A stretch of 58,709 nt of DNA, filler included, from Jimgerdemannia flammicorona (lineage: Eukaryota): assembly GCA_003990765.1 (NCBI GenBank). It is 3 parts of 3 records of this genome, joined end to end, with 100 filler letters (N's around TTAATTAATTAA, not from the genome) between each part and the next. Parts side by side here need not be neighbours in the genome. Positions count along the whole stretch, not along the records: positions 1 to 19,506 come from RBNJ01001924.1; 2 more parts are not named here. One strand, written 5' to 3'. Positions 6,433-51,174 of the stretch are shown here, in pieces (position 1 is the stretch's first letter; every line of letters begins with the position of its first letter). The position numbers were made by a program, and so were the translations under genes. The notes under the pieces are model-generated. The model had not been told where the DNA came from, did no database searches, and saw only the letters and a list, made by a program, of their open reading frames with translations.

Positions 6433-8444
6433 CTTCTACTCAATAAGATATGTTTCAGAATATGCAGAATATATAAATAAAAGATTAACTAAATATGACC
6501 AACTGGATGCTATCTAGATAATCAAAAAAGGTTGAAATTCTCTACTTATAAGTATAAAAATAGGTAAACAGAGTAGTGAAAAATGAAGATCCAGAACAAT
6601 GTTATTAAAGATAAATACTCATAATGGAATAAAACTAGTAATATTGATAAAAGATATATATACAAGATGTAAGATATAGTAGAAAGCTTTTAGCACTCTG
6701 AAAATCTTTCTATTATATCTATATTATTACTACTTACTGCTTACTATCATAGAATTACTACTTACTGACATATAGTCCCTATTAGCATAGAGTTATCTGT
6801 AAGTCTCATTCCTTATATATATAAGTTAAACCTAGCCTTTAGAGGAGCTTTAGTTAACAAATCTGTCATCATATACTTTTTGGAAGTATATTCTAAATAT
6901 ATAGTACTATTTTCTATATATTTTTATATAAAATGATACTATATATCAATGTGCTTTATTCTAGTATGATATATAGAGTTCTTTGCCATAGTAATCATAG
7001 ATTAATTATCTTGTTGAAGTAGCATAGAGTGCTATTGATTGTATCCTAATTTCTTTAGTAGTTTCCAAAGCCATATAGCTTTCTTTATTGCCATAGATAA
7101 TACTTAATACTCTGCTTATATAGATAACATTATCACCAAAAATTACTTATGTGTTTGCCATAAAATGACTCTGTTTTTACTGATTTTAAAGAGATATCCA
7201 GTTGTAGAGTACTGATTATTGAGATCTTTAACTCAGTATACATTACATATACTAGATAGCCTTATAGTACTCCCACTTGATCTATTATTATTACTACTTA
7301 AATGTAGCATATTATGCTATATCTTTGATATATCTAAAGATATACTGGATTACTATCCAATGTGAATTAATATAGCAGGATGAGTACTGTACTACTTTAT
7401 TAACTATATATAATATATCAGATCTTATTCTAAGCATAAGATACATGAGAGATCCCACAGCTTACCAATAAGGAATATTGTTATCTTTGGATATAGTATT
7501 AGACTTCTTTAGCCTCACAGATATCTTTATAGGTGTTCTGATAGGTTTGTATTCACTCATGCCAAATCATTTGAGTAGAGTCTGAATATATGTGGCTTGT
7601 AATAAGTATATAGTACACTATCATATATGATCAATATTCTAAGAAGATAGAATATGCTACCTATATTCATCATCTTGAATTTCTGATATAAAGTCACCTT
7701 TATGTTATTAATCTCATTTTTCATCAACCAGAATAATATTATTGACCCAAATTCCTAGGTATTGTAATGTGCCCTGTTCAATGCAGGCAAATTACAAGGT
7801 TGGGGGTTGATGTAGTTTGGCTTGAGCCCCCAGTTACTTTGTCAAAAATTCTATAATTCCTGAGGTCCTTGGTGGTGTTTAGTGGTATAATAGTCAAAGC
7901 TGGATATCTGTGAGCGATTTCCTTATTGGGATGGTTCTCTGGGTGTAGCGGCGATTTGTGTATGTGATGGATGATTTGGTATAGTGCGACGATCTCTGTG
8001 TAGTGCGGTGATCTCTGTATAGCATGGCGCTTTCCTTATGCATGGCAGTCTGACAATTTCAGCAGTTTTCTTCTTGGGTGACGACGATCTCCAAAAGTAT
8101 GCCATTTCTGGCAAATAACTCAATTTGGCCAGATAACTCGGTTTTGGTACGGATTCTCCTAAATCAGCGGGCTCACTGGGAATGGGTAAATAACTCAAAA
8201 ACGGCAGATAATGTGGATAATTAGGATAACTCAGAGGGCAGATAATTCAATAACTCGGATAACTCGGGAAGCTCGGATGGTGGATTCTTAGCAAGTTACA
8301 TCAAAGACTGGCTTTGTTTGCACAGGGTTACGTCGTAGACTGGCTCCACTGTGAAGTTGGGTCAGATAGACTGGCTTGTGGCAAGGTTCCTTATAGTGGG
8401 TCCTCTGGGAATACAGGTTCTTCTTGAAAATGGCAGCTTATTCC

Positions 8445-8947
8445 AGAGGAGGAGGAAGGCCCAGCGGGAGCCATGGGAGCGAACCCAGAGCCAGTGTCAA
8501 AGCGAACGGAAGATATGTGGAAAGGCGTGTATAAGGGGGATGAACAAAGAACGTAACTGAAATTGCATCAGCCATTTATTGCCACGTAAAAACATGGTCC
8601 TTATATACAAAATACGACATCCCAAAAGGGAGGACGCGCCACAACTCGGGGCAAACCGAATTAGGAACCACATGACCGCCGGAGATAGGTGGAGATAAGA
8701 GGGGAGCCAATCCCAGTTGCAGGATAAAAATCACAAACAAACACAAACAAAACAAATCCAAATCGAGATTAAAAAACATCTGCAGACCCCGGAGGGGTGA
8801 GCGTGAGCGAGGGGTGAGGCCGAAACAGAGCGAGCCGCAGCGAGCCCGAGCGAAGCGAGGGGCTGAAGGCAGTGGAGGGGAGCGGAGTAAGGCCGAGACC
8901 CCGGAGTGAGCGCGAGACCCCGGAGGGGGCAAGGATGTTTTTTAATC
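8445..8947 (-). repeat. PLE pseudo-LTR, 3' copy
   Basis: Near-identical to 11920-12421 and, inverted, to 13525-14027. Includes the first ~24 codons of ORF1. Confidence 0.95.
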
Positions 8948-11026
8948 CTCTCCAGCAGAGCCAGAGGCACCAGAAGGTGATGAAAACACAAAACGAGAAT
9001 GATGGATTAAAGAAGAAACAGAAGGAAGACGCGAATGAGCAATCAGAGGGCGTCGGGAAAGAGATGAAAGTCCATGGCGGGAAAGAGAAGAGCGCAGGAC
9101 GATATCAGGGCGTTGAGCAACCCAGCGAGCACAATCAAATAGTACGACGAGAATCGGGGGTGGGAAAGAAGAGGGGGTATAGAGAGGGTAAGGGGGGAGA
9201 GAGGGAAGGGAGGGGGGGTAAAGGGGAGAGAGAAGGGAAGATCGAACAACAGACCATTCAACAGAAGCAAGCAGATCGCGAACAATAGAAATTGGGTAGG
9301 CACAACGATGGACCACGAAGTTGCCAAGAACCCGAACAGCAGACACCCAGTCAGAACGACAGGAGCAGCATAGTGCAAGACGACAAGCCTCACCACGAAC
9401 ACATTCAAGAAGAGTGCGATGAGGATGGTTGGACAAGAAGTCAGGGAACTGTTGGGAACGTGGAAAATGAGAATAAACAACAGTTCGGAAAGGAGAAAGA
9501 GAAATGGAAAGGTCCAAAAAGGGAATACTGGTCGTACCACACACCCAAGTAATAGAATGATGGGGAGGATAGACACCACGAAACACACTAGGGATATCAA
9601 TACCAGCAACAGCAAGGACGATAAAGTCATCGATGTATCGGCGAAAGAAGATATCCCCAGCCCAGAACGCGATGGAAAGAGGTGAAGAAGGATCACGTAT
9701 CGCACGCAGTTCATGAGCCAAGCCAACAAGATTGGCAAGGGTGGGGGCACAATTCGTACCCATGGCAATACCAGAAGTCTGGTGAAAGGAGCCAAGGGCT
9801 GACTCAAAATAATTAGAGCCGCAGACGAGGAGCGTAAGCTCAACAATGGAAGCCAGTGAGACAGGGGAGTCCAAAGGAAATACAATGGAACCCAAGAAGC
9901 GAAGGCAATCATCGATCTCATCAAAACGAATAGCAGTGTAGAAGGAGGAGAAGTCACCAGAGGCCAAATGGGAAAAATGGTGAACAGGCACAATGGTGGA
10001 GCAGAGAAGGGCGAGCTCCAGAGTATCACGAAGAATGGTATACTCAGGCCCAAGACGGTGTTGTAAAAGAGCCATCCAAGAGAGAAAGAAGTGGGATAAC
10101 CACTTAGAAATCTCAGTAGTGGGGGAGTTATAAGCAGCCGTAATGGGATGCCAAGCCAAAGTAGGCTTGTGAACTTTAGAAAGGGCATAAAAAACCGGAA
10201 GACAAATGTCCGGAGAGGATAAAGAGTCCTGGAAGAAGTTAAAAATAGGGTTCGCAAACGGGGAATCCGAAAGCAACCTAGCATGAGCTAAGATAACCCG
10301 AAGAAGAGTGAGAACCTCATCCAATCCAAGAGCACTAGGCTCATAAGCCACGGCTCGAAGGAGGGCAGAAAGGCCATCAAGGTAGAGCAACTTAGGAATA
10401 AGTGCAAAACCCTGATTCTTATCAGTGACTGTGAGCAAATACATAGGCAATTGCTTGACCGATTTAAGTGCGGTACGCACGGCATGGTCCGAAACCAAGC
10501 AAGAGTGAGTGCATCCAGGAATGGACAACAAGCAAGCCATGTCGAGGAATACGCAGTGTGAAGAGACATTGGGAGGGGGGACCCAATCGCTAGGAACAAA
10601 ATAGCGAGAGGGCATCTCACCACGATCTTTGAAGAAGATGGCAAGGTCAAGAGCATGACGAAAACATGTGAGACGAGCCGGATCGGTGAAGGAGAATTGT
10701 GAGGGAGTCGCAGGAAAAACAAAGTGAGGACCCAAAGATAAGGCAAAGACTTGAAGGGGAGAAAGAGGGCAGTCAGCCAAAGAAAAAGGAGGATACAAAA
10801 GTGTTCCAAGAGAAGAATAAACCTGAAAGTTCGGGACAAGCAACTGGGAAAGGCGAAGGGGGGACAACATGAGGAACCACTCAGGGTACACCAGAAGCGA
10901 CAACGGGATCCGAGACAGGACGGGGACACTGGGGGAGAACCAGGCCGGGGGGAAGTTTAGGAGTGGGAGGTCTTCCCCTTCCCTCTGACTTTTTTTGAAG
11001 GTGGCGAACCCGACGAACAGGAGCAC
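8942..11026 (-). CDS. Penelope-like reverse transcriptase, 694-codon uninterrupted frame, no GIY-YIG domain
   Basis: Motifs ALSLGPHF, TDKNQG, PVFYALSKVHKP..WHPI, DFSSFYTAI, GIAMGTNCAPTLANL, FRRYIDD, IPFLDLSI, NHP...GEACRL..CS and RPLIAHSR, then a stop within ~30 aa. True start uncertain: 11026 is GTG and the first in-frame ATG is ~10870. Confidence 0.93.
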   Translation of the reverse strand: MLLFVGFATFKKSQREGEDLPLLNFPPAWFSPSVPVLSRIPLSLLVYPEWFLMLSPLRLSQLLVPNFQVYSSLGTLLYPPFSLADCPLSPLQVFALSLGPHFVFPATPSQFSFTDPARLTCFRHALDLAIFFKDRGEMPSRYFVPSDWVPPPNVSSHCVFLDMACLLSIPGCTHSCLVSDHAVRTALKSVKQLPMYLLTVTDKNQGFALIPKLLYLDGLSALLRAVAYEPSALGLDEVLTLLRVILAHARLLSDSPFANPIFNFFQDSLSSPDICLPVFYALSKVHKPTLAWHPITAAYNSPTTEISKWLSHFFLSWMALLQHRLGPEYTILRDTLELALLCSTIVPVHHFSHLASGDFSSFYTAIRFDEIDDCLRFLGSIVFPLDSPVSLASIVELTLLVCGSNYFESALGSFHQTSGIAMGTNCAPTLANLVGLAHELRAIRDPSSPLSIAFWAGDIFFRRYIDDFIVLAVAGIDIPSVFRGVYPPHHSITWVCGTTSIPFLDLSISLSPFRTVVYSHFPRSQQFPDFLSNHPHRTLLECVRGEACRLALCCSCRSDWVSAVRVLGNFVVHRCAYPISIVRDLLASVEWSVVRSSLLSPLYPPSLPSLPPYPLYTPSSFPPPILVVLFDCARWVAQRPDIVLRSSLSRHGLSSLSRRPLIAHSRLPSVSSLIHHSRFVFSSPSGASGSAGED

Positions 11027-11046
11027 ACCCCATCAGAGTGCCAGAC

Positions 11047-11991
11047 CTAGCGGCCACAGGCCTTCGTGCAGCCCTTGCATTCAGGGGCACAGGTCGAGGA
11101 GGCAGAGGAGGAACCGGCGGAGGAGGTGGAAGGCAAGCGAGCAGCTGAAGGGGCAGCAGCGCGAGGAATACCACCATGGGGGCAGACGAAGCCTGATTGG
11201 GCTTGGCAGGGGTCTTGGTGGGGGTCTTGGAGGGGGCCTTGGCGGTGGCGGCAGCGAAGGAGCGAACCTCAGCATGAGCAGCAGCCCGAGCTTCAGCGCG
11301 AATGGCCTTGGAGACCGAAACCTCAGATGGTGGCGCGAGCAGAAGCGGTGGCGCGAGATGACTCTTGCTCGTAAAGACAAGCAACGAAGGAGGTGCCGGC
11401 GAGGAGGAAGCGACGTACAGCATCGATGTCGGCAGCGACAGAAGGAACTTAATGGATGGCAAAGCCACAAAAGGGGGCAGCATCCGAGAGGTGAGAGGAG
11501 GCGAAGGCCACGAAAGTGGCACAGGCACGATGGAAGGAGGTGGAGGCGGCGGCGGCGGAAGCAGCGGCGGCATCAGCAGTGGCGAGTTTGGCGGCAGCAG
11601 TGGCGGCGCGAACCTCTTCAGAGAGGGCTTGGCGGCGGGCCTCAGGGAGGACAGAATAGCGGATGGTGGACGGAGCGACGACGTCGATGTCATGGCGGAG
11701 ATGAGCCTCCTTGGCAGAGAGGGCAAGAACCGACCGGAACTGAGAAAGGAGCGGATGACCAGAAGGATGAAGGTCCAGGGGGAGGGAAAGAATGGCAGAT
11801 GAGACATAGGTCTTGAACGAGACAGTGGCGGGGGTGAAGGCAGGGGGGGGAGGAGGAGGAAGAACCTCATCCATGAGCTCGTCGACGAGGACGGAGGCCC
11901 CGAGGGCAGACGGTACAGCAGAGGAGGAGGAAGGCCCAGTGGGAGCCATGGGAGCGAACCCAGAGCCAGTGTCAAAGTGAACGGAAGACAT
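11047..11991 (-). pseudogene. ORF1 of the Penelope-like element, Ala-rich and helical/coiled-coil-like, disrupted
   Basis: ATG at 11991 lies inside the pLTR (MSSVHFDTGSGFAPMAP..). Ala-rich helix RRQALSEEVRAATAAAKLATADAAAA; in-frame TAA at 11449-11451, with the frame continuing VPSVAADIDAVRRFLL. The middle segment reads better in another frame (KAIRAEARAAAHAEVR). Ends TAG at 11047. Confidence 0.6.
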
Positions 11992-12421
11992 GTAGAAAGG
12001 CGTGTATAAGGGGAACGAACAAAGAACGTAACCGAAATTGCATCAGCCATTTATTGCCACGTAAAAACGCGGTCCTTATATATAAAATACGACGTCCCAA
12101 AGGGAGGACGAGCCACAACTCGGGGCGAACCGAATTAGAAACCACATGACCATCGGAGATAGGCAGAGATAAGAGGGGAGCCAATCCCAGTTGCAGGATA
12201 ATTATCACAAACAAATACAAACAAAACAAATCCAAATCGAGATTAAAAAACATCTGCAGACCCCGGAGGGGTGAGCGTGAGCGAGGGGTGAGGCCGAAAT
12301 GGAGCGAGCTGCAGCGAGCCCGAGCGAAGCGAGGGGCCGAAGGCAGCGGAGGGGAGCGGAGTAAGGCCGAGACCCCAGAGCGAGCGCGAGACCCCGGAGG
12401 GGGCAAGGATGTTTTTTAATC
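11920..12421 (-). repeat. PLE pseudo-LTR, 5' copy
   Basis: Direct repeat of 8445-8947; continues into ORF1. Confidence 0.95.
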
Positions 12422-12743
12422 TCGATTTGGATTTGTTTTGTTTGTGTTTGTTTGTGATTTTTATCCTGCAACTGGGATTGGCTCCCCTCTTATCTCCGCC
12501 TATCTCCAATGGTCATGTGGTTCCTAATTCGGTTTGCCCCGAGTTGTGGCACGTCCTCCCTTTTGGGACGTCATATTTTGTATATAAGGACCACATTTTT
12601 ATGTGGCAATAAATGGCTGATGCAATTTCGGTTACGTTCTTTGTTCGTCCCCCTTATACACGCCTTTCCACATGTCTTCTGTTCGCTTTGACACTGGCTC
12701 TGGGTTCGCTCCCATAGCTCCCGCTGGGCCTTCCTCCTCCTCT
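12408..12743 (+). repeat. Inverted partial pseudo-LTR
   Basis: Reverse complement of 11920-12254. Begins exactly at the 14-bp IR and ends at CCTTCCTCCTCCTCT. Confidence 0.95.
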
Positions 12744-13530
12744 TGTTGGCTTGGCTCATGAACTGCGTGCGATACATGATCCTTCTTCACCTCTTTCCAT
12801 CATGTTCTGGGCTGGGGATATCTTCTTTCGCCGATACATCAATGACTTTATCGTCCTTGCTGTTGCTGGTATTGATATCCCTAGTGTGTTTCGTAGTGTC
12901 TATCCTCCCCATCATTCTATTACTTGAGTGTGTGGTACGACCAGTATTCTCTTTTTGGACCTTTCCATTTCTCTTTCTCCTTTCCGAACTGTTGTTTATT
13001 CTCGTTTTCCACGTTCCCAACAGTTCCCTGACTTCTTGTCCAACCATCCTCGTCGCACTCTTCTTGAATATGTTCATGGTGAGGCTCATTGTCTTGCACT
13101 ATGCTGCTCCCATCGTTCTGACTGGGTGTCTGCTGTTCGGGTTCTTGGCAACTTTGTGGTCCATCGTCGTGCCTACCCAATTTCTATTGTTCGCGATCTG
13201 CTTGCTTCTGTTGAATGGTCTGTTGTTCGATCTTCCCTTCTCTCTCCCCTTTACCCCCCCTCCCTTCCCTCTCTCCCCCCTTACCCTCTCCGTACCCCCT
13301 CTTCTTTCCCACCCCCGATTCTCGTCGTACCATTTGATTGTGCTCGCTGGGTTGCTCAATGCCCTGATACCGTCCTGCGCTCTTCTCTTTCCCGCCATGG
13401 ACTTTCATCTCTTTCCCGACGCCCTCTGATTGCTTATTCGCATCTTCCTTCTGTTTCTTCTTTAATCCATCGCTCTCGTTTTGCGTTTTCATCACCTTCT
13501 GGTGCCTCCGGCTCTGCTGGAGAGGATTAA
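12741..13530 (+). pseudogene. 5'-truncated second copy of the PLE RT
   Basis: Reverse complement of ~8942-9732. YIDD is mutated to YIND and there is a TGG>TGA stop at 12925-12927. Confidence 0.95.
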
Positions 13531-14027
13531 AAAACATCCTTGCCCCCTCCGGGGTCTCACGCTCGCTCCGGGGTCTCGGCCTTACTCCGCTCCCCTCCGC
13601 TGCCTTCGGCCCCTCACTTCGCTCAGGCTTGCTGCGGCTCGCTCCGTTTCGGCCTCACCCCTCGCTCACGCTCACCCCTCCAGGGTCTGCAGATGTTTTT
13701 TAATCTCAATTTGGATTTGTTTTGTTTGTGTTTGTTTGTGATTTTTATCCTGCAACTGGGATTGGCTCCCCTCTTATCTCCGCCTATCTCCGGCAGTCAT
13801 GTGGTTCCTAATTCGGTTCGCCCCGAGTTGTGGCACGTCCTCCCTTTTGGGACGTCGTATTTTGTATATAAGGACCATGTTTTTACGTGGCAATAAACGG
13901 CTGATGCAATTTCGGTTACGTTCTTTGTTCATCCCCCTTATACACGCCTTTCCACATGTCTTCCGTTCGCTTTGACACTGGCTCTGGGTTCGCTCCCATG
14001 GCTCCCGCTGGGCCTTCCTCCTCCTCT
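13525..14027 (+). repeat. PLE pseudo-LTR, inverted 3' copy
   Basis: Reverse complement of 8445-8947. Confidence 0.95.
13860..13900 (+). promoter_or_regulatory. Candidate TATA box and AATAAA in the pLTR (present in all four copies)
   Basis: TATATAAG followed ~26 bp later by AATAAA, ~90 bp upstream of the ORF1 ATG, and preceded by the hairpin ACGTCC..GGACGT. Function is inferred. Confidence 0.45.
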
Positions 14028-17000
14028 GTGGTTTCTTCAGGCTTATCTGGCAAGTGAACCAAAAATGGACTCATTCTTTGTATCAGAAAGTGGACTGAAG
14101 TAGGAAAAGGAATGCTTTGCTCACAATCTCCTAGTAGTGGCTGTAGAGTTCCTCTCAAAGTGTGGTAGGCAGACTTGTCTTTTGCTTTTGGATTCAATTT
14201 TGGACTGAGGTTTATTCACTCTTGTCTCTGGGGTATTTTATACTGCTATCTGGATAATTATATATTTACCATCTCTGGTAATATTTGGGTATATCCACAG
14301 GACATGAGTGTGTCCACAGGACATAAGTGTGTCTGCCAGATACAGATATGTCCTCAGGATATAGATAAATAACCCCGATTTGGTATTCTGGCTAATTATA
14401 AGTATGGCAGTCATGAGTAACTATGCTATGCTGGGAATTCACATCATCTGACTATGTTATACTATTTGCTCACTATAGTATACTGTTCCTGAAGATATAT
14501 ATTAGATATATACATATGAATCAGCCTTATAATACTTAAATCTGTTATCTAAGAAATATTTGTTAATTTTTGATTCTACAGTCTTATGTACTACTTATTT
14601 GATACTATAGAGATATTTATGTATCTTATATATAAGCTTGTTTCTTTTATTGAATAATTCATATTCTTGTAATTGATATATATATAGCTCTATATCTACA
14701 TTGCCTTTCAAAATGGCTGTCTTAACATATATTTGGTAAATTTCATAATTATATTTAACTTTGATTGCAAGAAGTATTCAAAGTAAAGTAAGCTTAAATA
14801 CTAGAGAGAAGGTCTCATCATAGTCTATGCCATATTCTTGTAAATATCTCTTTTCTACAAATTAGGCTTTGTAATACTTTATATTACTATTACTATTATA
14901 TTTAACTTTATATATCCAGTGAGATCCTATTGCCTGTCAATTTGCCAGAAGAGAGACTAAATCTCATGTGTCATTCTCAATAAGTAAATTATATTCCTTA
15001 TCTATGGCCTTTTTTCACTCCTTTTTATTATCTAAATATATGACTTCATTATAGTTTGCTAGCTTATTAGTTATTGTTATATAAGTATACTTACAGATAT
15101 AGTTTATATGTATAATTTTTATAATAAAATATCTTAGGTTGGTCCCAATAATCTTCTAAATTCACTTTGACTTCATTTTAGGGTCTAGATTTACACTTTC
15201 TTTTACCCTTCAGAGAGATATCCTCATTATTATTCTTGTTTGTAATTTTCATAATTCTAGGCTCTAATAGCCTCATTAGTATATATATGGATTATGCTGG
15301 TGCTGATACTGGCTAGATACCATTCTGCTTATCTTTGAAGTTGACATAGTTGTTACTAGCTATACTATTGGGTTAGTTGAGATAGGAATCTTCATACAAA
15401 TTTCCTACTTAGTCTTCTTAAATTGAATATTATGAGAGATGACTATATAATATTTCTGCAGATTCTATAATCTATATACTGCTCCATCATATCTAAGGAG
15501 TATATGCTTATCTGCTTTAGGCTCAAATTTGTCTCTATTGATACCTTTATCCAAAATGTAAACCTTACTTCTGAATATCTATAGGTACAAAATATCTGAC
15601 TTAGCTCTACTTTATAATTCCTCAGAAGTAAGACTACTATTATTTCTAGATTACTGATTGTTTCTGTGATTATTTCTAGATCATTAATTGTTTTTGAATT
15701 ATCAATTATTCCTGGATTAATAATTGCTAGATCTGCTGAATCTACTGAAATCTTTGCTTATAGTTTGAGAAATATAATAATTTTGGATATATGTTATTAT
15801 ATTTACTACTTTGGTCCTAAAGGAGTACAATAGGTCAGCCATATGCATCATCATTCAAGCTATCTCTACTACTGTTTGATTAAAGCATTCTATCACACTG
15901 TTCTATTCAGATATATAGAGAGCTATTATAGAGTGCTGGATACTATACTTCTTCAAGAAATATCTAAAGACTTTGTTGAAATATTCCTTACTATTATCTG
16001 AGTATAAGATCTGTATCTTATATTACATTTTGTTCTCTACAGTTATATAGAATTCTCAGAAATTTTTGAATAACTCATTTTTTATTATAAGAAAGAATAT
16101 ATAGACTTTGCAAGTATAATTATCAATAAAGGTGATAAAATACTTCTTTCTAGAGTATATTACCATTTACATGAAGCCACAGATATCTGTATATATTATT
16201 TTGAGAATACTGACCACTTGCTTTGTCTATTTCTGAAATGGTTACTAAGAAGCCTCATTTGCTATATATCTATTGTAAAAGAAATTCAGAGATATATAGT
16301 CTTATAATTCTCTTACTGAACTACTTCTTATCATCTATTCTAGACTCATCTTGCTGATATGCCCTAAGAATTTATACTATATATACCAGAGATCCTCTCC
16401 AGTTATAGCAGAATATGTAAATGATGTACTACTTACTTAATATATTATTAATTGTATATAGGTTTCCCTTTTTTGATTTATATATTAACTTCTTATTATT
16501 CTTTAAATTAATTACTATTATACTATTCTGTTATATATTTACTCCTTTATCTCCTTGAGTGATCATCTGGTCTATTGAAAAGTAGTTCTTCCCTATATCT
16601 GAAGTATATAGTATATTAATGAAGGTATCTGAGAATTTATTAACTTTTCTATATAAATATATATCAATATTGCCCTTAACTTAAGTATAGATGATACTAT
16701 TATCATCTAGTTTGATAAGTGCTCAAACTTCTTATATGTAGAGAACTACTTCCAGTATACTATTATATACTATATTGCACCAGAATCTATAAGCCAGACT
16801 TCTTTACTATATATGTGAGTACTCAGTATATAGCTTATATTAGTACTGATACTTATGTTAATATTTTTTATCAATGTAAAAGTATTTCTCAAATTCACTC
16901 CCAAATCTCTCTCTGTATAAAGATAGATTACTGCTGTGAAAAATATATCTTAGTTGCTTTTATTATTATTGGTATCTATCATATTTGTCTACTCTTAACT

Positions 17001-19506: not shown

Positions 19507-19606
19507 NNNNNNNNNNNNNNNNNNNNNNNNNNNNNNNNNNNNNNNNNNNNTTAATTAATTAANNNNNNNNNNNNNNNNNNNNNNNNNNNNNNNNNNNNNN
19601 NNNNNN
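19507..19606. other. Artificial contig linker (N44-TTAATTAATTAA-N44)
   Basis: Exactly 100 bp with a six-frame stop core; identical to 39109-39208. Confidence 0.97.
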
Positions 19607-32100: not shown

Positions 32101-35100
32101 GAATCTGAAGATTAGTATGTATAAGACATTAGTCTATACTCCATATCATATTGAAGATTATATCTTTGATGCCATCATTGATACTAGTACTGGAGAATAT
32201 CTCATAAGTAAGAGGACAATTGACTGCCTAGACTGGGACATTGAAGAGTCTATCAAGATGGTCTATATTACAGTAGATGGTATATGAGCTATCTCCCTTA
32301 GTAAGATCTGAGAAGTTCCTATCAAGATTGGAGGAGCTACCATATTAGTAGACATAATTGTTATAAGCATCACCAACTATAACATTCTTATTAGCAACTA
32401 ATAGCTTCACAAGGCCAAGGCTATCATTGATCTCAATGTCCAGAAGATGCAGATCAATTATAGAGGAAGAAAGGTATGAGTCTTTATTAATATCTATAAA
32501 GGAGTTCTATCAGATATAGAGAAAGGAGATGAAGAGAACATAGAAGTCTTCATACACTCAGTAATCAAGAACAAGAACAAGATACTCAAGCTTACAGATG
32601 AGTAGTGGTATAACAAGATCATTAATAGCTATACTTCTCAAGAAAGATATCCCCATAGTACTAGAATATACTACTCTAAACACCTGAATGACTACTGATC
32701 CTATATCAGTGAAGTCAGGAAAATCCACCAACAAAAGCATAAGTAAGAAGCTGCTGAAGCAAAAAGAGAAACTAAAGAAGATGACCAGCCCCCAGAGCTT
32801 CAAGCTAACAGTAATGATGAGGAGGAACAAGAACCAGACATCACTCTCAAAGTTAAGAAGTTTCACTCCAAAGTCAAGATCCCAGAATATAAGACTGAAG
32901 GAGCTATAGAAATAGACCTTGCTAGCATTCAAGATACTACTCTTAAACCACAGACCACTACTCTACTTGGTATTGGAATTGGAGTCAAGTTATCAGAAAA
33001 CTATACTGGAATTATCAAGACTAGGAGCAGTCTGGCCAAAAGCAAAATCTCAGTTAAAGGAGGAGTAATAGACCCTAATTACATTGGCAAGATCTTTCTC
33101 ATAGTCAGGAATCACAACTCCACCACTCTATTCAAAGTTAAGAAGTATGACAGAATTGACCAGATGCTGATCCATGAAGTCAAAAAGTCTAAGATCACTA
33201 AAGCCATTAAACTCATCAAGACTAAGAGAGGAGAACAAGACTTTGGATCTACTGGAAGAGGAGCATATACTGCCACTAAGATTACTGAACTCAGCACAAG
33301 AAAGATAAGAACCAGAATAAGTACATATATACCATCAGAGAAAACTTTTCCCTAGAGAAACAACTTCTTAAGATCCTACACCAGAATGAAGAAGTACTTG
33401 CTATAGACTTCAGAGATATCCACAATCAAGAACTCAAGTACTACCAAAAAGTTGACATCAGTGATACCAAGCCCATCTATCAGAAAGCCAGATCTATACC
33501 ACCTGCCTACAGAGAATGGCTGCAAGCAAAACTCAAGGAAATGGAAGAAGCTGGAATTATCAAGCAAGCTATCAGCCCCTGGACTTCACTCATTATTCTT
33601 ACCTTAAAGAAAGAAAGCAAGCCTGGAGAGTTTGCCCTAAGACTCTGTATTGATTATAGGAAGCTCAATATAATCACTAAGAAGGATAGACAGTCTTTGT
33701 CAAATATTCAAGAAATCCTTACCACTCTTGGAAGCAAAGCCAAATACTACACTACCTTGAATCTGTTCTTAGGCTTCCATCAGATTAGTCTCACTCAAGA
33801 TACCAGTGAGAAATCAGTCTTCATTACACCTAATATCACTTATGTCTATCTGTGAATGTTATTTGGAATGTGCAATACCCTAGCAAGTTTTCAGCAAATG
33901 ATGAACAGAGTCTTCAGCAATGAGATTGGAAAATAACTCTTCATCTATGTCAATGATGTGATCATCTTTAGATACTGCATAAGAATATGTCAACCATATA
34001 TAGCTAGCTCTCAAGAAGCTCAAGGAGCATGGCCTCTACATCAAGCCCAAGAAGTATAAGTTTGCAGTCTGAGAAATCACCTACCTAGGACACATCATCA
34101 ACCAGACTGAAATTCACATAGATTCTATAAATATTGAGGCTATTACAGCCTACTCAAGACCCAGGACAACTACAGAAGTCCATATCTTTCTTGGACTGGC
34201 CTCTTATTATAGAAGATTTATCAAATAATACTCTAACATTGCAGCACCTATCTATGAGCTACTGAAGAAGAAGACTAAATTCAAATAGACTAAGAAATGT
34301 CAAGAAACCTTCAATGAACTCAAGACCAGATTGACCCAAGCACCCATTCTCAGAAGACTAGATTGGAATCTAGAGTTTATTCTACAAACAGATGTAAGTA
34401 CTATAGAACTTAGAGCAGTCCTAGCTCAGAAGAAAGATGGACATGAATATGTCATCTCTTATATAAGCCAAGATACCCATGAAATAGAACAGAACTATGA
34501 GTCATATAAGCTTAAATGCTTAGCAGTAGTTTGGGCAGTAGATAAGTTCTACTACTACCTAGCTGGGAAATACTTCACTATTCAAACAGACTATTCTACT
34601 CTTACCTAGCTATTCCACACTCTGAACCCTAAAGGAATATATGCCAGATAGTCTACAGACTATAAGAGTATGACTGTACTATCAAACACTACTCAGAAAA
34701 AACCAATGCTAATGCTGATATACTCTCAAGGATACTCCAAAACACCCTCATTAAGATTATTTAACATGAATAAGGAGTTATACTATGGATTAATCAGCTA
34801 CTTTGAGTAGCAGAAAATGCTCAACCATCTCAAACTCTAGACTATTACTATCATTAACTGAACTTAGAAACAATTTGAACTAGACAATATCATACTCAGA
34901 AAAGAAGGAAAGCTCATAATACCTGAACATAAGAAGTATCAAGTAATTAAGGAAGTATATGAATAAGGATACCTAGGAGGAACCAACACATATAATAAGG
35001 TAAGAAGAACTATATGATGGTCTAAGATAGATGAAGACCTGTACCAATTTATCAAAAGATGTGACAAGTGCTAAAAATAGAAACAAGATCAGTAAGAGCA

Positions 35101-39108: not shown

Positions 39109-39208
39109 NNNNNNNNNNNNNNNNNNNNNNNNNNNNNNNNNNNNNNNNNNNNTTAATTAATTAANNNNNNNNNNNNNNNNNNNNNNNNNNNNNNNNNNNN
39201 NNNNNNNN
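39109..39208. other. Artificial contig linker (N44-TTAATTAATTAA-N44)
   Basis: Same 100-bp structure as 19507-19606. Confidence 0.97.
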
Positions 39209-39404: not shown

Positions 39405-41805
39405 CTCATAACTTAGCTGCGTAACTCAGTAGTTATCTCATAGCTAGCAAACTTGTATAAATAACCCAGTATCTTCAAGTGAATAAACCTCAGATCGAAA
39501 GTGTTAGTAAAAGAACAAGTATACCGATAAAGAGACTTTCGGGATTATCTCTTAAAAACACATTTGGCCTCAAGGAACTACTGACTCTGGGAGTCAAGAA
39601 GATAAGAATTCAAGATAAAGAAATCTGACATACTTGCCCACCTTAGCATCTACTACATTACAACTTAGTGCCTATTAGTTGGTAATTCAAGATGAATCCC
39701 TCACTTTCAAGCTTAACAATGAACAACCACAACCAGAATGCACACAACACAATCAGACAGAATGGATATAAGACCCCCCGTATTCTATGGATATATATCC
39801 GATGAATCAATCATCACCTTCATTGATGATTTCGAGTAGTATACTGCTATAAGGACCTTAAGTGCAGTATAACAAGTAGCCCTACTCTCTGTAAGCCTCT
39901 GAGGTCCAGCAAGAACTGCATTTACTGCAGCCAATATACAAGCAGCTGATGATCCAGCAAGAATTATAGCTTTCAAGACCTGGCTCCAAGCAACCTACTA
40001 TACAGACAAAATCAAACAGATACTCAAAGATTAACTAAATACTATCTGCCAAGGAATGTCTGAAGATCTAAATATATTCTATACAAGAATCTGACATCAA
40101 ATAGTCCTTACTGACTACCCCGATGCAGTTCAAGACTAAGTGGCCAAGAATACCTTTATGAAAGGCATTTACTAAGAAATCACTTTAGCCATTTGATCTA
40201 CCCCAACACTACTGGACCTGGGATAGAAGGTTACCTATGCCCAAAGATACTGGACTGCCAGACACCCTCAAGGCCATACAATAGAAAGGATAACTGGAGT
40301 AAAAATTGAACAAGCACCAAGAGTCACCAATATAATCCCAGCTACCATAGTTAACCAGAATACACAACCACAACCACAAGACCAGAGAAGGGTCGATCTA
40401 ATGAAGGAACTGGCCAAACAGTTTGCAGAAATGACTGCACACCTCAGTGATGTAGTCAAAGAGTTCAAGAAGAAGTCAGTACAGAAGTTTGCTACTACAA
40501 ATGCAAGACAATCAATAACATACTATAACTGTGGAGAAGAAGGCCACTATGCCTCCAAATGTATGATAGAAACCAAGTGAAAGGCCAATCCAAGCAATGC
40601 AACCAGAAACTGCGAACAAGCAAACACTATCACCTTTGAGAAGATTGGAGAATCTGAGGAAGAAAGAGAGGAATGGGAAGCTTATCCTACCACCTCAAGT
40701 AAGAAGGATGTCTGATCCAGTCCCTACAAAAGACCTCCAGGCAGACCTCTTAAGAAGGCCCAGACACAGACAAAACAACCAGAAATAGTCATCAAAAAAG
40801 AAATTCAGCAGAGCAAAGCTAACCAAGATATGGAGCTAGAACAAGATGCTGAGCTGGAGCAAGCATTAGAAGATATTATTCGAAATACTATCCCATCAAG
40901 TGAAGGGAAGAAGGAGCAGAAACTGCACAAGAGCAAGACCTTCAAGTATGACATCTTCAAGAATCTCAAGGACCAAAAGATCAATGCAACCTTTGGCCAG
41001 CTGGCTGAAATCCCAACATTCAGACAACAAATAAGGACAGGAATCTCAGACATCAGCAAAGACCAAGGTTACAGAATAATCGAAGCCAACAATGCACAAG
41101 AAGATTCAGATAAAGAGAGTGAAGATAACTGGAAAACATCAGCCTATGCTATCTGCCAGATCGAGGACTGGGTCTTTGAAGCCATCATTGATATAGGAGC
41201 AGAAAGATGTCTCATCACCAAGAAAGCAGTAGACTGCCTAGGTTGGGAGATAGAAGAAGCCACCAAATTAGTGTTTGTCATAGCTGATGGGACATGAGCA
41301 ACACTCTTGGGAAAAATTCAGGATATATCAATCAAGTTTGGCAAAGCCACTATCTCTGTGGATGTTATTGTTACCAATACAACCAACTATGATATCCTCA
41401 TTGGCAACCAGTGGCTTCACAAAGCCAAGGCCATGATCAACCTCAGTGCATAGAAGATGCAGATCATCTACTGGGGAAAGAAGATCAGAATTCTCATCAA
41501 TGTCTATAAAGGAGTCTGCTCTGAGATAGAGGAAGACCAAGAAGAAGAAGCCTATATAGTTATTATGAAGAAAGGAAAAGGCAAGCAATTGACAGAGGAA
41601 GAATGATATACAAGAATTGCAGACAGATATGCCCCACTAGGAAGGTGCCCCCATGGTGAAAGAATGTACTGTACCCAGCACTTGAATTACTACTACTCTT
41701 GTATCATTGAGATGAAGAAGATCACCAACAAGCCAAAGAAGAACCAGGAGGAACCAGAAGATGGACCACCAGAACTATTGGATAACAGCAATGATGAAGA
41801 AGACA

Positions 41806-42218
41806 TCACAGTCAAGATACAAAGAATCTACCCTGATGTAGTTATGCCACAATACAAATTGGAGAGTACAGTAGGAATGGACCCCTCTACCACAACACAC
41901 ACAATACTCGAACTGCAGACCACCACCATTCTAGGAACAGGAATTGAAGTAACCATCCCACCAAACTATGTCGGAATCCTCAAGACAAGGAGCAGCTTGG
42001 TAAAGAGCAAAATATCAATAGAAGGAGTTATTAATTCAGACTATATAGGAGAAATTCTCCTCCTCATCAGGAACTACAACCCAACCATTCCATTTGAAGT
42101 AAGGAAGAAGGATCAGCTGGCACAAATGCTCATCCTACCTATCCTTAATCCAAGAATCAAGGAGATCACAAACATTAGACAAACTTAGCAAGGAAGGGCT
42201 GGATTTGGCTCTACAGGA
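41806..42218 (+). pseudogene. dUTPase domain in Gypsy C pol
   Basis: KTRSSLVK, GVINSDYIGEI, DQLAQMLI, then *QGRAGFGSTG (42201-42218). Confidence 0.9.
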
Positions 42219-44935: not shown

Positions 44936-45372
44936 ATGACACTTAAGATTATTAGTACTGTCCAAAGAGCCATCGAAAGACAATGGCACACCACCGAGCC
45001 TCTGACTATAGAGGTATACTATGAGGATATTCAGAGCATTATACAGACTCATCTCTCTCGGATCTCACACTTTAGAGCCTATCAATATCAGGCAGAATTC
45101 CAAGAGTACTTCAAGCTTAGACAGGTGCTCAATCAGGATCCAGCAAAGACCAAAGAGGACTGGATTGCTGAGTGTCAACTCTCTCACTCACAGATCACTA
45201 TTGCCAAAAGGATCTACAAGTTATTCTGAGAAGATGAACTAGCAATAGACTATCTGAGAGGAGTAATCCCCACCAACTTCGAGAAAGTAAGAAGACATCA
45301 TTGGGAAACAGTCATGTAGCAAATTGCACAGTATAAGACCATACAGACAGTTGAAGTCTGAGAGTTTGAATA
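44936..45372 (+). pseudogene. Additional ORF of unknown function between integrase and PPT in Gypsy C
   Basis: ATG at 44936, just after the pol stop; 97 open codons, then continues past TGA (EDELAIDYLRGVIPTNFEKVRRHHWE). Confidence 0.6.
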
Positions 45373-45410
45373 GATATCTCAGGGATGAGACCATCTATTT
45401 AGGAGGAAGT

Positions 45411-45867
45411 TGTAACGGTATAGCCAAATTAGAAAGAAGGAAATAGAGAATAGATACTTGATCACACCCATTCCCAAAGTAGTATAGCTTTATAGTTAGC
45501 AGTTGCCAATTTTGACATTGTCTAAATTTCTAGACATTGTCCAAATCGAATACCCTGATTTAGTATAGCATTTAGACATTGTTTAAATTTCTAGACATTG
45601 TCTAAATGACTCATAACTTAGCTACGTAACTCAGTAGTCATCTCATAGTTAGCAAACTTGTATAAATAACTCAGTATCTTTGAGTGAATAAACCTCAGAT
45701 CAAAAGTGTTAGTAAAAGAACAAGTATACCAATAAAGAGACTTTCAGGATTACCTCTTAAAAACATATTTGACCTTAAGGAACTACTGACTCTGGGAGTC
45801 AAGAAGACAAGAATTCAAGATGAAGAAATCTGACATACTTGCCCACCTTAGCATCCGCTATGTTATA
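45411..45867 (+). repeat. Gypsy C 3' LTR
   Basis: TGTAACGG...TGTTATA; 45610-45867 matches 39405-39662; TATAAATA and AATAAA at 45661-45692; GACATTGTCTAAAT tandem motifs at 45514-45607. Confidence 0.9.
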
Positions 45868-46396
45868 CTATATAATATATTTTATATTCAGTTTATCTGA
45901 TTTTGTTAAATTTCTTCTATATAATATATAATAAATAAGATTACTTTTATAATTCTGTACAGTCTTTTACTCTTCTTTTTTTTTCTAAATTCCTGGTAAT
46001 TCTTGCTTAAGTTTTTTTTTTAAATTCTTCCTGATAAATCTCAAGTTTTTACCCTACTCTTTTTTCAAAATAGTGCTGTAATTTTCAGCTCCATAGTGAA
46101 TTTGATGTAAATTAACTTTATATATATATTTTTATATAGGGATAGTCCCATACCTTTCGAGCTATAATGGGTGTTTTGAAGTTTTAATCGATGGATGCCA
46201 AATATCATACAAGAATGAGTGCATCTCCAATCCGAATCTCCACCCAACTGGTAGTTATCCTGAGACACCTGTCTGGAGCGGTTCAAATCTCGACATTACG
46301 AAAGTTATGAACGACTGTCGTCAGCTGATTTGTCAACATTTTTTCCCATTGTACAATATGCCCCCGTACCGTCATCAACTCGACTCGTCATCTGAG

Positions 46397-49300
46397 TCAT
46401 TCTTCTGCTTTTTCTTTCCCTTTCCATGGAGGGATGATCTTGTTGGCACACGGGTTGGGGTAGTTTCCCGGGTTGGCGGCCTTACCCTTGCGACGGGAGA
46501 TCACAAACTCCCAACACCCACATCTAGCGGCGTTTCCTGTGAGATTTTCTTCAAGAGATTGACAGTGGCGCATAGTTGCTAAAACAGATTGAAGGAACTG
46601 TTTTAACCATTCCATAGATGCTTTTGATAACATGTATGGCTTCCTGACCAATCCATGTACCTTCAAGAACAAAAGGCGCAAAACTGCCTTGGCAAGGTGG
46701 CCAAGCGCGTCAATGCTTTGAAATGAAACAATTTCGCGAACTTATACACGCCAGAGCATTGGAGATTCATAACGTAAACACTCCCCTCAATGCCTTTATA
46801 CGAGATGCCAGAAACGATAGAGGTTAGACCACGTTCTCCGCAGAGAATCCACCTGCATGTGTACTCAACCGACGTTAAGATCCCAAAGACTTCGAGATTC
46901 ACAATATTCTTCTTGTGTTTGCTGGGAAGGCTCGTGTACAGATAATCGATCTGGTCTTTGAGCTCTCTCGCGAGCTTATAGCGATCGCGCAGGAATTTCG
47001 TTTGCCCCTCTAGACTGTCGCTTCGGCCGGACTCCATTGTGAGCAATTCTCGGGCCCAAGTGTCTCGCGTCCGCACGGTGGCATCCAATTTCGCCGAGTA
47101 CTTCTTTGTGCCATACTGAAGTTGCGCGTTTTTTCGGTAGGACACAGCCCGGGATCCCTGTTCTCCTCTAAAAGAAATACAGTGACCAACGGGAAGGAAA
47201 GAAAGTAGCATCTTTGAGATATTAAATGCTGCTCTCACCGAATAACCTTCACACCGCTCATATCAAAGAAGAGCGAATCGATGAATACGCCGTATACATG
47301 CACTTGGAGAAATCCTTCTGTATTGGTCGAGTCAAGCAAAGGGTTTTCGGGAAGCTCGAAGAACTGGACGCTTAATGGGCAAAGATAGCGACGGTGTTGT
47401 TAGGATCCAATCGGCTACTCAGATCGAACACCGAGATACTTACAACTTCCGAAAAACCATGTGTATGTATTCGAGATTATAATGTTTGCTGATATTGTAG
47501 TTCGTGCCATTAATACTTCACGGATCTCTACAATTGTGGGCTGGAAAAAAAAAAAAAAAGTGAGGATATATGTCACAGCTAAAACAAACCGACACTATCG
47601 TTAGATTTACCTTGTTCAATCGCAACAAATATTCTGACTCGGCGAATTGCACACCCACTTTACTCCTATTCTCCTTTTCTGACTCATGAACAGCAACGAG
47701 TTCATCCCATGTGTCCCGGACCTTCCACGTCACAAATTCCAGCACAAACCGGAGCGTTTCTGTCAAGCTCGAGTATGTAGCTGCGCGCGAACCTGGACAA
47801 CTGGAAGATATTAAACAAAGTCACGGACGTAAAAGAGGGCATCGCTAACAGCATCAATACTTACAAATCCTGCACGCCTGCTTTGCTCCTTTTTTTTTTT
47901 TTTTTTTTTAATGGACTCTATGTCCCATGGATTTTTATTGGAAGGGAACCTAGACTATATAGGCCAAAACCCTCCCCCACCACCCATCAAGCACTGCCCC
48001 CCCATTAATCTAGGCTAGCTATTGTCCAGCAGCTTGACTATGCCAGGTGCAGCAGGGCAAAGTTGCCCGCACCTCGTTCTGCGCACCATGCTCTCCCTAC
48101 CACCAGGGGAAACCCAGCCATATGCCAATGACCGAAAGTGCACATCTGAGAACCCAACATATGTACAAGGCCATGCCCAAGTCAAATAGAATAGCCCCTG
48201 CCACCCCAAAGAGAATGACAGGTAAAGAAAAAACCCTCATCAAAGTACAACATGGTGGGTAGGGCCTGGTTCTCTCAGTCGAGGTAAGTAGAGGACTTAC
48301 ACGTGAGGTGGGAGGAGACCCCCAATACCCCACTACTCAAGCCTGCGGGCCTTGATCATGTTGCCATGTCAGCTCCCGGTTCCAGTTGAGTGTAGCCAAA
48401 ACACCTAAAATGGGTAGCCTCAGGCCCCCCGACCCCCTCTGATGACCGGGGCCCAACCCCACAAATCGCCAAAAGAAGCCGAGAGTGACACCTACTATCT
48501 AACTGCACCGCACCAATCAAAAGGCCCCACCGAAGCAGCACTCGCCCCAGCCCTGACAACCGCCCCCAGCCTGGCACCCTACTGGTTCACCATAATCGCC
48601 CTTCCTCCTATCTGTGATGACCATCTCCCCTCCCATCCCGACATCACCTGAAAAACAGTCACCTATGCCAGAACTGCGCTTGCCGGGAAGCTTGCCAAAG
48701 CTAGAGAGCCCCACTATAGGCACCAAGAACCTGCAGGTAACCTACATTGAGTACTTGACACCCAAGATTGGCCAACTTCCTATGTAGCCTGAGACACACC
48801 GAGACAACTCCTTGTTGGTGACAGCAAAAGAAAGAAGGCGCTACACCAAAATGGGTATACCCCAAATACAGCTGAAAGCACCAGAATCTGCAAAAAAGTG
48901 GAGGAAGCACCGATCTGACACCGATAAAGGGGCAACTCATCACCATTGCCCTCCTCCCACCATGCCCCTGCAGGCACAGCAAACCAACCCGAGGTAGAGG
49001 GGGTAGTATTAGGGGAAAGGGGACTCAGAAGGTCACCTACCAAACCTTGTGACCGATAAGGTAGCGGAGAAAGGAGCTGTGCTGACACCTGCTTTGCTCC
49101 TATATGCTTTGAATATATGCCCGACGTTCTTGCCACTTGGCAGGATCCATCCGCTCTCGACACTCAATTCAATAGTTGGAGGCAATCCTCTTTGTCGTCG
49201 CCGTTGTCGCTATTCTCATCATCTTCATGACTGTCATAATCGCTCTTTTCGCTGTCATCTTCATTTTTCAATTAGAGCAAAGTCCGTTTCCGAGATCTTC

Positions 49301-50942
49301 CGCTTAGGCGACCGCGACACTCTTTTGACAAGGAACACGTTCGAGTCGGACTTGTGTATCGAGGAGCTGCTGGACGAAGAATCACTTTCAATATCGTTCA
49401 GCCTTTGGCGGTGCTTTTCTGTCCGCGCTTTGTTATAGGTCGTTTTGACAGAGCAATTCTCTCCATTGTTGTCCAGATCTCGCTTGTTATTCTCAGGTAA
49501 AGCATCTGAGAAGAGATATTCTTCGGTATGCTGTCTAGCGTCACCAAATAAATTGACGCTGCTAATAAGGTGTCCGCGTTTCACTGACAACTATTTTGCA
49601 TAATGATGCAAATTTGTTATCCACTAGTAAAGGTGAATATCAATAGTACAAGATATGACTCACCGCCTTCCGCTCAAAGATGATATCCTCCCAAAATGGT
49701 TTTCTGCTATTATGTATTTGCATGATTGGACACCATCTATTCGATAAGGGAATATGAAGAAATACTAGAACTCTCGCCGGAACAAAAACTTGGTAAACGC
49801 AAATCACAAATCGCAATGGTGGGGCTCGGATAGGCAGCCGATGGAATACCCCTGAAGTCTGATAGGCAGCGGACCAGGGGCGCCCTTAAAAAAAACGTAC
49901 TATACCTTCTTCGCATAATTATCTGGACTAAGTTCTTTTGCCGCGCCTTTAAAGCGACGGAACCAAGCACCGTCAAGTACCGCCCAGTCATCGGAAACCG
50001 GTGTTGAAGAAATGACGACATCGCGATGGTGTTTCAAAAACTCGATGTAAGACCAGACTTTATGCTCCTTCAGGTAGGATACAAGAGCTAGAATGTTCGT
50101 TGGTAAGTTAGAAGGAATGTAATTTTTTTGTAAATTGCCTTCCCTGGAGACTTACTGGTATAACCAAATTATACGAGTAACCGGGATATTTCTCCGGCTC
50201 CTCCTTTTGGAGCATTTTTTCACGCCTTCCTTCTTTCGGCTCCTCCTTTTGAAGCTTTTTACGTTGGGTTCGTATCTAAACGGGATATGCCGTCAATACA
50301 GGATGGATTGATATACAAATCAATGGTAAATCTAACAACCTTTTCCATTTGTAAATCTGAGCCAACAGTGATTGATTCTACGTTGTTCCACTTCATGATA
50401 CCTTTCACGGTGATCCTTACGTCATAGTGATTGGAGATGGAAGATTGAATATGAGTACACGATTGGAGTGATAAGAAAATTAAAATTAGCAATGGCTGAT
50501 GGCCGAAGGTTGACAACAACGGGCACACAACGGAACGCATTTGTCCACCGTACAAGAGGGTCCTTGAGACTCCCAATTGCAATATACGACGAAACGCATT
50601 TCATCAAAGATCAAGCGCACTTGATTCTCCTAGTCGCATAACCGCGTTTTGTAAACCTCCAGCGCGACAAAAAGAAAAAGGAAAAATGTCCTGCCTTAAA
50701 TCATTCAGCAGCCGCCTTGCAGCTATCTTTGCCTCTGGTGAATCGACGCTGTTTACCTCCTCGATATCGCTCTTGAGTTTACGGGCTTCCTCTTTGTATG
50801 AAAATGTGAAATCGGGCTGTTGTTGGCGATACTTGTAGAAGCCGATGAAAGAATAATCCGCCGGTGCAGTTTCACGAAAGTATTCAGATGATTTTCGATC
50901 GGATTCTCCAACTTCTCCTTTTGGCTCCTATTTGGCAGACAT
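46397..50942 (-). pseudogene. Multi-exon pseudogene: N-terminal header domain(s), acidic linker, C-terminal PD-(D/E)xK/REase-like domain (Crinkler/CR-effector-like)
   Basis: Exon-like pieces with splice-like borders: SEYFRETAPADYSFIGFYKYRQQQPDFTFSYKEE; SYLKEHKVWSYIEFLKHHRD..LDGAWFRRF; WILPSGKNV; TEGFLQVHVYGVFIDSLF; GEQGSRAVSYRKN..KLDATV..ELLTMESG..KFLRDRYKLARELKD..LEVFGILTS. Stop at codon 5 (ATG TCT GCC AAA TAG), several frameshifts and a LINE insertion. Family assignment is by resemblance only. Confidence 0.65.
47891..49087 (-). mobile_element. 5'-truncated non-LTR retrotransposon insertion with polyA tail and TSD
   Basis: T20 at 47890-47909; 14-bp TSD CCTGCTTTGCTCCT at 47877-47890 and 49088-49101; removal restores AYRSKAGVQDL. 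CpG-poorer than the flanks. Confidence 0.88.
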
Positions 50943-51174
50943 GGGAAATGAGTAGATGATTTTTCGATCGGATTTTTTTACAGCATTATGTAGAATGGAT
51001 TTGGTTCAGTACTGTTAATTTCTGAGTTATGGCGTACGTTCGTTCACATACAAAGCCCACCTCTTACGTTCCCGCCTTCGAAAAATGATTTCATCGGCAG
51101 ATGCGGGTGTTGCTGTCGAAGAACAAGGGTTTCAAGTATCAAGGGTTTCATATCAGAACAAAAGAAAGCGGAGA

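Follow-up and report, generated by a model that had tools for sequence, protein, structure and literature searches.

The closest described counterparts of the locus analysed here are found among Penelope-like elements. According to Arkhipova et al. 2013 (PMC3846280), the endonuclease-containing Penelope of Adineta vaga occurs with two direct pseudo-LTRs (pLTRs) plus one inverted pLTR, bears 18-bp and 38-bp palindromes at the 5' end of the pLTR and, in case of Pen2a, a 15-bp overlap of the inverted and the direct pLTR. The consistent palindromes at the inverted junction were considered there to be best interpreted as self-priming, and endonuclease-deficient elements of protists and fungi were stated not to share the inverted-pLTR organisation (PMC3846280). 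According to a further report, endonuclease-lacking elements are generally located at chromosome ends with reverse-complement telomeric repeats, and canonical hammerheads are present in all Penelope-like clades but Naiad and most Chlamys (PMC8557442). Coprina-1_Alen is described as possessing LTR-like direct repeats and residing at telomeres (PMC13159263). The origin of tandem and inverted pLTRs in Penelope-like elements is an acknowledged open question; in PMC8557442, 'still undefined features' of the cycle are held responsible for these structures, with GIY-YIG nuclease properties suggested as determinant.

The window (i.e., the whole stretch of 58,709 nucleotides from Jimgerdemannia flammicorona that was analysed) contains one composite insertion, consisting of a full-length minus-strand copy and an internally deleted plus-strand copy in head-to-head arrangement (Table 1). 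Both outer ends of the composite are element 3' termini (...CCTCCTCCTCTG, reading outward), and the inverted arms at its two extremes extend over 1288 nt with 96 % identity. The direct repeat formed by the two pLTRs of the full-length copy (8444-8947 versus 11919-12421) shares 94.2 % identity over 504 nt. A TATA-like motif (TATATATAAGG) is located in segment X2 near 12075-12085 on the minus strand, and the probable start codon lies about 25 codons (~75 nt) before the pLTR end. The N-terminal region following this ATG is Ala-rich, yielded no Pfam match and requires at least two frame changes to be joined to the reverse transcriptase (RT) frame in the full copy. The full-length and the plus-strand copy overlap in block M2 solely by the 14-nt repeat at 12408-12421. 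Within the plus-strand copy, 2187 nt are skipped; the skip begins exactly at the element 3' terminus, and the joint between X3 and the RT fragment displays a 3-nt microhomology (TCT). Neither self-comparison nor tblastn with the RT revealed further element copies in the window.

Table 1. Coordinates of features of the composite insertion (positions in the window), followed by contigs with distant relatives (positions in the respective contig)
Feature	Position	Strand	Remarks
Whole composite	8444..14028	.	Element of about 50-56 % GC in CpG-depleted DNA of about 30 % GC
3' pLTR, full-length copy	8444..8947	-	Segment X1 (8444-8780) and block M1, sharing the 14-nt repeat 8767-8780
Block M1	8767..8947	-	Repeats 8767-8780 and 8934-8947; core 8781-8933; directly after RT stop
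14-nt repeat pair 1	8767-8780 / 8934-8947	+ / -	Pattern scan
RT reading frame	8942..11032	-	696 aa, stop to stop; TAA at 8942-8944
Probable element ORF start	11449..11991	-	ATG 11991-11989 within pLTR; six-frame view
5' pLTR, full-length copy	11919..12421	-	Segment X2 (11919-12254) and block M2 (12241-12421)
Block M2	12241..12421	-	Core 12255-12407 in the orientation of the full copy; so aligned, 96.1 % identical to M1
14-nt repeat pair 2	12241-12254 / 12408-12421	+ / -	Pattern scan
Segment X3 (inverted X)	12408..12743	+	Starts with the 14-nt repeat; ends 1 base short of the canonical 3' terminus (...CCTCCTCCTCT)
RT fragment, plus-strand copy	12741..13530	+	Last 790 nt of the RT frame (equivalent of 9731-8942)
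3' pLTR, plus-strand copy	13525..14028	+	Block M4 (13525-13705) and segment X4 (13692-14028)
14-nt repeat pair 3	13525-13538 / 13692-13705	+ / -	Pattern scan
Extra bases TGGTT	14029..14033	.	Between element end and resumption point of paralogous empty sites
Terminal-overlap contigs			L001, L003, L005, L008, L009, L010, L013, L016, L018, L020, L022, L028, L029
CCCTAA repeats plus module	L021 1634-1845; L025 7495-7706; L027 1241-1452; L031 7849-8060		

Outside the composite, two frames with dUTPase domain (32747-33855, followed by a weak RVT_1 match, and 41607-42188) probably represent pieces of a retroelement with dUTPase that occurs twice. At 54721-55341 and 57306-58151, in the CpG-normal part of the window, there are exons encoding a P-type cation ATPase (domains Cation_ATPase_N, Cation_ATPase and Hydrolase). 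The N runs at 19507-19606 and 39109-39208 each consist of two 44-base runs with 12 bases between them.

The preliminary description of this DNA had claimed that each complete pLTR begins with a 14-bp inverted repeat bracketing a 153-bp GC-rich module, and the pattern scan bears this out: the 14-mer GATTAAAAAACATC occurs at six sites in the 58.7-kb window, all of them exact in a scan allowing one mismatch, and these sites form three pairs each enclosing 153 bp of about 71-72 % GC. Shuffled versions of the window are expected to contain 0.06 matches, and six were reached in none of 100 shuffles. Also as described before, the RT stop codon TAA resides within the repeat, both in the minus-strand copy (8942-8944) and in the plus-strand copy (13528-13530). 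The 14-nt pair represents the longest perfect inverted repeat of the 3475-nt element unit (runner-up 11 nt), and an inverted repeat of this length arose in just one of 200 shuffles of the unit. Since the 14-mer is A/T-rich (3 G/C among 14 letters), the duplex formed by it would be weak. Its sequence is identical in all three blocks; this perfect conservation carries little weight, because the repeat contains no CpG and divergence within the locus is nearly all of the CpG-type transition. The enclosed core differs strongly in composition between its strands (on the element sense strand, C makes up 48 % and A 5 %), is not self-complementary, and contains five runs of at least four C on the sense strand; a minus-strand cDNA of the module would have five runs of at least four G. 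Module plus flanks are predicted to fold no better than shuffled sequences (z -1.8 as RNA, -1.6 as DNA). The 181-bp block of repeats and core thus delimited opens the 3' untranslated region, or pLTR, of an endonuclease-lacking Penelope-like element. Its interpretation as an inserted MITE or foldback element was rejected, as no target duplication is present beside the repeats and all three copies in the window occupy the same element position.

On the basis of its sequence, the element is placed among the Penelope-like elements lacking an endonuclease, with assignment to neither Athena nor Coprina, because of its RT relatives and motifs, the end of its ORF, and the lack of GIY-YIG and of telomeric repeats. 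The RT frame displays the motifs DKN, KVHKP (KxHK), GIAMGTNCAP and YIDD plus a thumb; the match of Pfam RVT_1 to this frame itself is weak (E 0.014). An indexed search retrieved four related proteins, and an exhaustive search 2556 representatives at E ≤ 0.001, five of them at E ≤ 1e-30. Closest to the RT are P0001 with 50 % identity and P0008 with 75 % identity over 95 aa. The four first matches and 49 of the 150 listed representatives were scanned with Pfam. RVT_1 was detected at E ≤ 0.001 in 39 of these scanned relatives (in some under the Pfam gathering score), and three (P0004, P0021, P0052) possess a C-terminal GIY-YIG domain after RVT_1, i.e., the canonical Penelope-like architecture. 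The nearest Atlas clusters are annotated as PF26215 (HTH_animal). In the alignment, the ORF stops ~20 aa past the last aligned motif, as it does in P0001, P0005, P0010, P0012 and P0002, and the closest relatives likewise end right after the thumb without an endonuclease. Pfam scans covering every long frame of the full copy gave no GIY-YIG domain at E ≤ 10, a further Pfam scan gave none at E ≤ 0.01, and none was visible in the six-frame view; the absence of an endonuclease rests on Pfam and frame reading, by which a divergent N-terminal endonuclease in the frameshifted copy may have been missed. Rfam returned nothing at E ≤ 1 over 7000-16000. The full copy contains a single hammerhead-type CTGANGA, situated inside the ORF and with no GAAA within 60 nt; minimal hammerhead variants could escape such a search. 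Six kinds of telomere-type repeats were tried, each on specified strands, and none was found anywhere in the window. Traits shared with Penelope-like elements are the pLTRs, which stem from a partial tandem and include the beginning of the ORF, and the adjacent inverted 5'-truncated copy (arms of 1288 nt and 336 nt). A DIRS-like element was considered and discarded, since the frames scanned contain no recombinase domain and the RT relatives are Penelope-like.

At the inner junction, the sequence beyond 12421 does not continue into the RT; it is an inverted copy of what precedes 12241, as stated in the preliminary description. The resulting arms (11920-12254 versus 12408-12743) are 94 % complementary over 336 nt and surround one single module. 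That the inversion takes place exactly at the 14-nt repeat was confirmed as well, the junction overlap being identical with the repeat at 12408-12421. The claims that the pLTR begins with the repeat and that the inversion occurs at the repeat are one and the same fact, because the joint itself sets the inner edge of the 504-bp direct repeat. Since the junction coincides with the longest perfect inverted repeat of the unit, use of the repeat's complementarity in the joining is well supported for this one locus. Palindromes may also stem from misjoined repeats during assembly, and such structures do trouble short-read assemblies according to PMC8557442; N runs are moreover present elsewhere in the window. 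Between 8444 and 14028, however, there are none, and the arms differ by 4-6 % with copy-specific transitions, whereas collapse or mirroring would give identical arms. The diverged arms therefore argue against an assembly artefact, which we regard as barely credible.

Public sequencing runs and contig collections were also searched. Run X1 (share of words 0.16) provided 331 contigs of many diverged copies, distributed as 59, 115, 111 and 46 over the identity classes; no head-to-head joint is listed among these contigs, which are short and say nothing on other copies. The sole opposite-strand joint, at 8857/13653, is found in one of them (depth 2.3), and the module points in one element direction to either side of it; this joint is a 38-nt length variant within the module (core 8781-8933), involving no inversion. 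Runs X2 and X3 contained next to nothing specific to the element, and the exact pattern of repeat, 140-168 nt and repeat had no match in genome contigs and none in viral contigs.

The repeated parts of the composite have since decayed at CpG sites. All 47 differences between the outer 1288-nt arms are transitions, 34 of them in CpG context, and the three modules differ pairwise at 7, 9 and 8 positions, with 24 of 24 changes being transitions private to one copy. The four X segments are 93.5-97.3 % alike. Variable sites are mostly private to one copy, which is compatible with a single event followed by decay; of the shared sites, four pair X1 with X4 as well as X2 with X3, a single one favouring another grouping. 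Private changes are roughly twice as frequent in segment X2 (11919-12254) as in the other three X segments and include the sole transversions and an indel. Observed/expected ratios of CpG are 0.02-0.10 for the A/T-rich flanks, as against 0.76 for the element and 1.01 for the gene-bearing end of the window. This pattern fits repeated parts that would have been alike at insertion and would have decayed later by cytosine deamination in a repeat-targeting host. In the comparison of window positions 1-45000 with 45001-58709, the A/T-rich, repeat-derived DNA was found to be nearly free of CpG with normal GpC; methylation or a RIP-like process seems to cause hypermutation of CpG in the repeats of this host.

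With respect to the insertion site, contigs of the paralogous flanking repeat from a public run join 8385, 8391 or 8443 to 14029-14034 with the whole insert absent; one of these contigs copies the left flank up to ...TTATTC and resumes at 14034. The composite hence sits at a single site. Compared with these paralogous empty sites, it shows no target-site duplication; because they are paralogues and not the pre-insertion allele, this reading carries an uncertainty of a few bases, within which a small duplication or deletion is possible. The target DNA is itself a multi-copy repeat (8244-8443 and 14044-14228, with summed contig depths of 44 and 341 in run X1), several paralogues of which lack the insert.

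Two explanations by separate events have to be weighed against this picture. In the first, replication template switching or break repair between short inverted repeats turned a direct or tandem arrangement into a palindrome after insertion. Short inverted repeats are known substrates of replication template switching, and the junction indeed lies in such a repeat. The inverted segment, however, runs exactly to the outer end of the insertion, where a canonical 3' terminus stands beside intact target, so that an inversion would need a second breakpoint at the element/flank border, at which no repeat copy exists; divergence is, furthermore, similar across all repeated parts. Such a rearrangement of DNA is accordingly judged improbable. 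In the second explanation, the structure arose from two independent insertions, or from a random 5' truncation that met the repeat by chance, the A/T-rich repeat possibly being a preferred target within a GC-rich element. A Penelope-like protein is reported in PMC11167929 to favour A/T-rich sites at its own ORF/pLTR border, and at this border the repeat offers an identical A/T-rich sequence on either strand. On the other hand, no element-encoded endonuclease was found, a nested insertion gives no 14-nt overlap and would have to hit the end of the earlier copy exactly, and all parts are similarly diverged, which makes this course of events decidedly improbable.

As to how the two copies were joined, the preliminary description had offered two possibilities: a cDNA ending at the inverted repeat that folds back and primes its own second strand, or two cDNAs annealing through the repeat. 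The latter fits the anatomy better, since element 3' termini are present on both sides of a single target; the former fits it less well. Our tentative preference, at somewhat short of even confidence, is that each side of a break primed a cDNA and that the two cDNAs then paired via the 14-nt repeat. A single insertion event at a DNA break would then have given rise to 8444-14028, each DNA end priming reverse transcription at the fixed 3' site of the element (...CCTCCTCCTCTG, ~75 nt into the ORF). The left cDNA would have covered the whole unit and been extended across X and the module as far as the distant repeat. The right cDNA would have taken in X together with the module, then 790 nt of the RT, before it jumped back onto a template 3' terminus, copied X once more and stopped just past the near repeat. 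With GATGTTTTTTAATC and GATTAAAAAACATC as their 3' ends, the two cDNAs would be complementary over 14 nt and could anneal, whereupon each cDNA may have primed second-strand synthesis on the other, yielding a single module, oriented as in the longer copy, between palindromic arms. Because two cDNAs of one element have the same polarity, they can pair only at an inverted repeat. The border between X3 and the RT, located at the 3' terminus minus one base and with TCT microhomology, would in this two-cDNA reading be due to a jump onto the template end; end-directed template jumps of the type seen in the right copy also give rise to pLTRs. Since no element nuclease is available, a pre-existing break would be needed, which fits the missing target duplication. 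In favour of this reading, a purified Penelope-like protein is described in PMC11167929 to cleave and extend both target strands in vitro. The order of these events, a break as the target and pausing of the reverse transcriptase at the stem and the module are thus proposed from the structure of one locus with one junction, and the data contain no sign that either cDNA stopped at the repeat.

The main rival of two annealing cDNAs is fold-back self-priming, in which one cDNA ending in repeat, module and repeat snaps back with the module as loop, and the hairpin is copied into a palindrome. The geometry of such a hairpin is matched by the arms 11920-12254 and 12408-12743 around one module, and self-priming is the published reading of junction palindromes (PMC3846280). 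Copying of one arm from the other would also predict the pairing of X2 with X3 and of X1 with X4 at four shared sites, versus one site otherwise; these groupings are, however, equally compatible with two cDNAs made off the same multi-unit RNA. Beyond X, moreover, the right arm is not the complement of the left arm, and the 2187-nt skip starting at the 3' terminus is left unexplained. Fold-back on a left-primed cDNA would furthermore give an inverted left flank, whereas the right flank is the normal target continuation. Fold-back is hence considered unlikely, if the strongest among the alternatives.

Modules closed by inverted repeats were also found among distant relatives. A profile scan of metagenomes provided 32 loci with 23-31 % identity (L032 with 55 %, over 33 aa only), none of which belongs to the same family and none of which has a head-to-head element pair. 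The corresponding protein-profile scan gave no match in viral contigs and one distant locus in genome contigs (L033, 25 % identity). Among the 32 metagenome contigs, 13 have a length of 3.1-4.0 kb and exact terminal overlaps of 60-127 bp (Table 1), and one contig (L014/L015) is a tandem with a period of 3196; tandem or circular organisation is thus common among distant relatives. Rfam, including hammerhead models, returned nothing at gathering score in the loci of 16 relatives. Inverted repeats were counted in 28 loci, leaving out L015 (on the contig of L014), the satellite-rich L024 and L026, and L032 with its weak match. Perfect inverted repeats of at least 11 nt numbered 60 versus 8.95 in shuffles, 38 of the 60 residing in the repeat-rich L025; without this locus, 22 were counted versus about 7.9 in shuffles, several of them in coding sequence, so that the enrichment is weak.

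Two distant families share the arrangement in particular. In L021, L025, L027 and L031, arms of 9-11 nt (partly decayed) surround 144-148 nt downstream of the RT stop, forming a 166-nt module ~30 nt after CCCTAA repeats. These repeats are located at, or a few hundred bases past, the ORF stop, with the stop lying within them in L021 and L027; this arrangement is the telomere-associated signature of endonuclease-lacking Penelope-like elements. In case of L031, a 720-bp direct repeat flanks the ORF, and the module is situated 19-20 nt in from where this repeat starts. The second family (L017, L018, L028 and L029) has 11-nt arms around 112-113 nt, likewise downstream of the RT stop, and indels in the two arms compensate each other between L017 and L028. 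Since the sequences are unrelated to the block in the window and the excess of repeats is weak, the modules of both families are regarded as a structural parallel rather than as demonstrated homologues. One may speculate that the repeat-closed module is a dedicated cis element of an endonuclease-less and hammerhead-less Penelope-like group that renders the ends of two independently primed cDNAs complementary, which would allow both sides of a chromosome break to be bridged and tandem or inverted pLTRs to form with no nuclease encoded by the element, and that the modules of the distant families are the same device, but this wider proposal is rather doubtful.

In comparison with known systems, the element resembles Athena and Coprina, as described in PMC8557442 and PMC13159263, in its RT with DKN motif and thumb, an ORF ending soon after the thumb without an endonuclease, an N-terminal extension, and LTR-like direct repeats as in Coprina-1_Alen. 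Unlike these, it has no reverse-complement telomeric repeats at its 3' end or elsewhere in the window, and no hammerhead motif was found; the insertion lies inside a dispersed repeat with no chromosome end visible, and the structure is head-to-head.

L1 twin priming, reportedly described by Ostertag and Kazazian in 2001, is said to involve two-sided priming of cDNAs that are joined internally by short complementarity; the 5' part of a single copy is reportedly inverted, with microhomology of 1-6 nt, and target duplications are left. The two-cDNA reading of the present locus is similar in that two cDNAs would be made from both sides of one target and joined internally. It differs in the presence of two overlapping copies, in a 14-nt repeat borne by the element itself and in that no duplication is seen.

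Penelope of Adineta vaga is likewise comparable: it also presents a full copy with two direct pLTRs and an adjacent inverted one, overlapping at the joint (here by 14 nt), and, according to PMC3846280, its pLTR contains a TATA box and the first ORF codons, and some insertions lack a duplication. Unlike in Adineta vaga, the palindrome is split here into two 14-nt arms around an asymmetric 153-bp module in one orientation, with no contiguous palindrome; neither GIY-YIG nor a hammerhead core was found, and the inverted copy includes RT sequence and an internal jump. The locus thus presents the full tandem-plus-inverted architecture without detectable nuclease or hammerhead, and its joint falls on the only long complementary sequence of the element. 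If general in the family, the inverted structure would be independent of a nuclease and would result from two-sided priming and template sequence instead. Supplements and subscription papers aside, literature searches yielded no account of a junction of this type with an inverted repeat divided by a module, nor of a two-cDNA model for Penelope-like elements. The concept of a junction palindrome is already published; what is new are two variations on it, namely the split of the repeat and the occurrence in an element with neither nuclease nor hammerhead.
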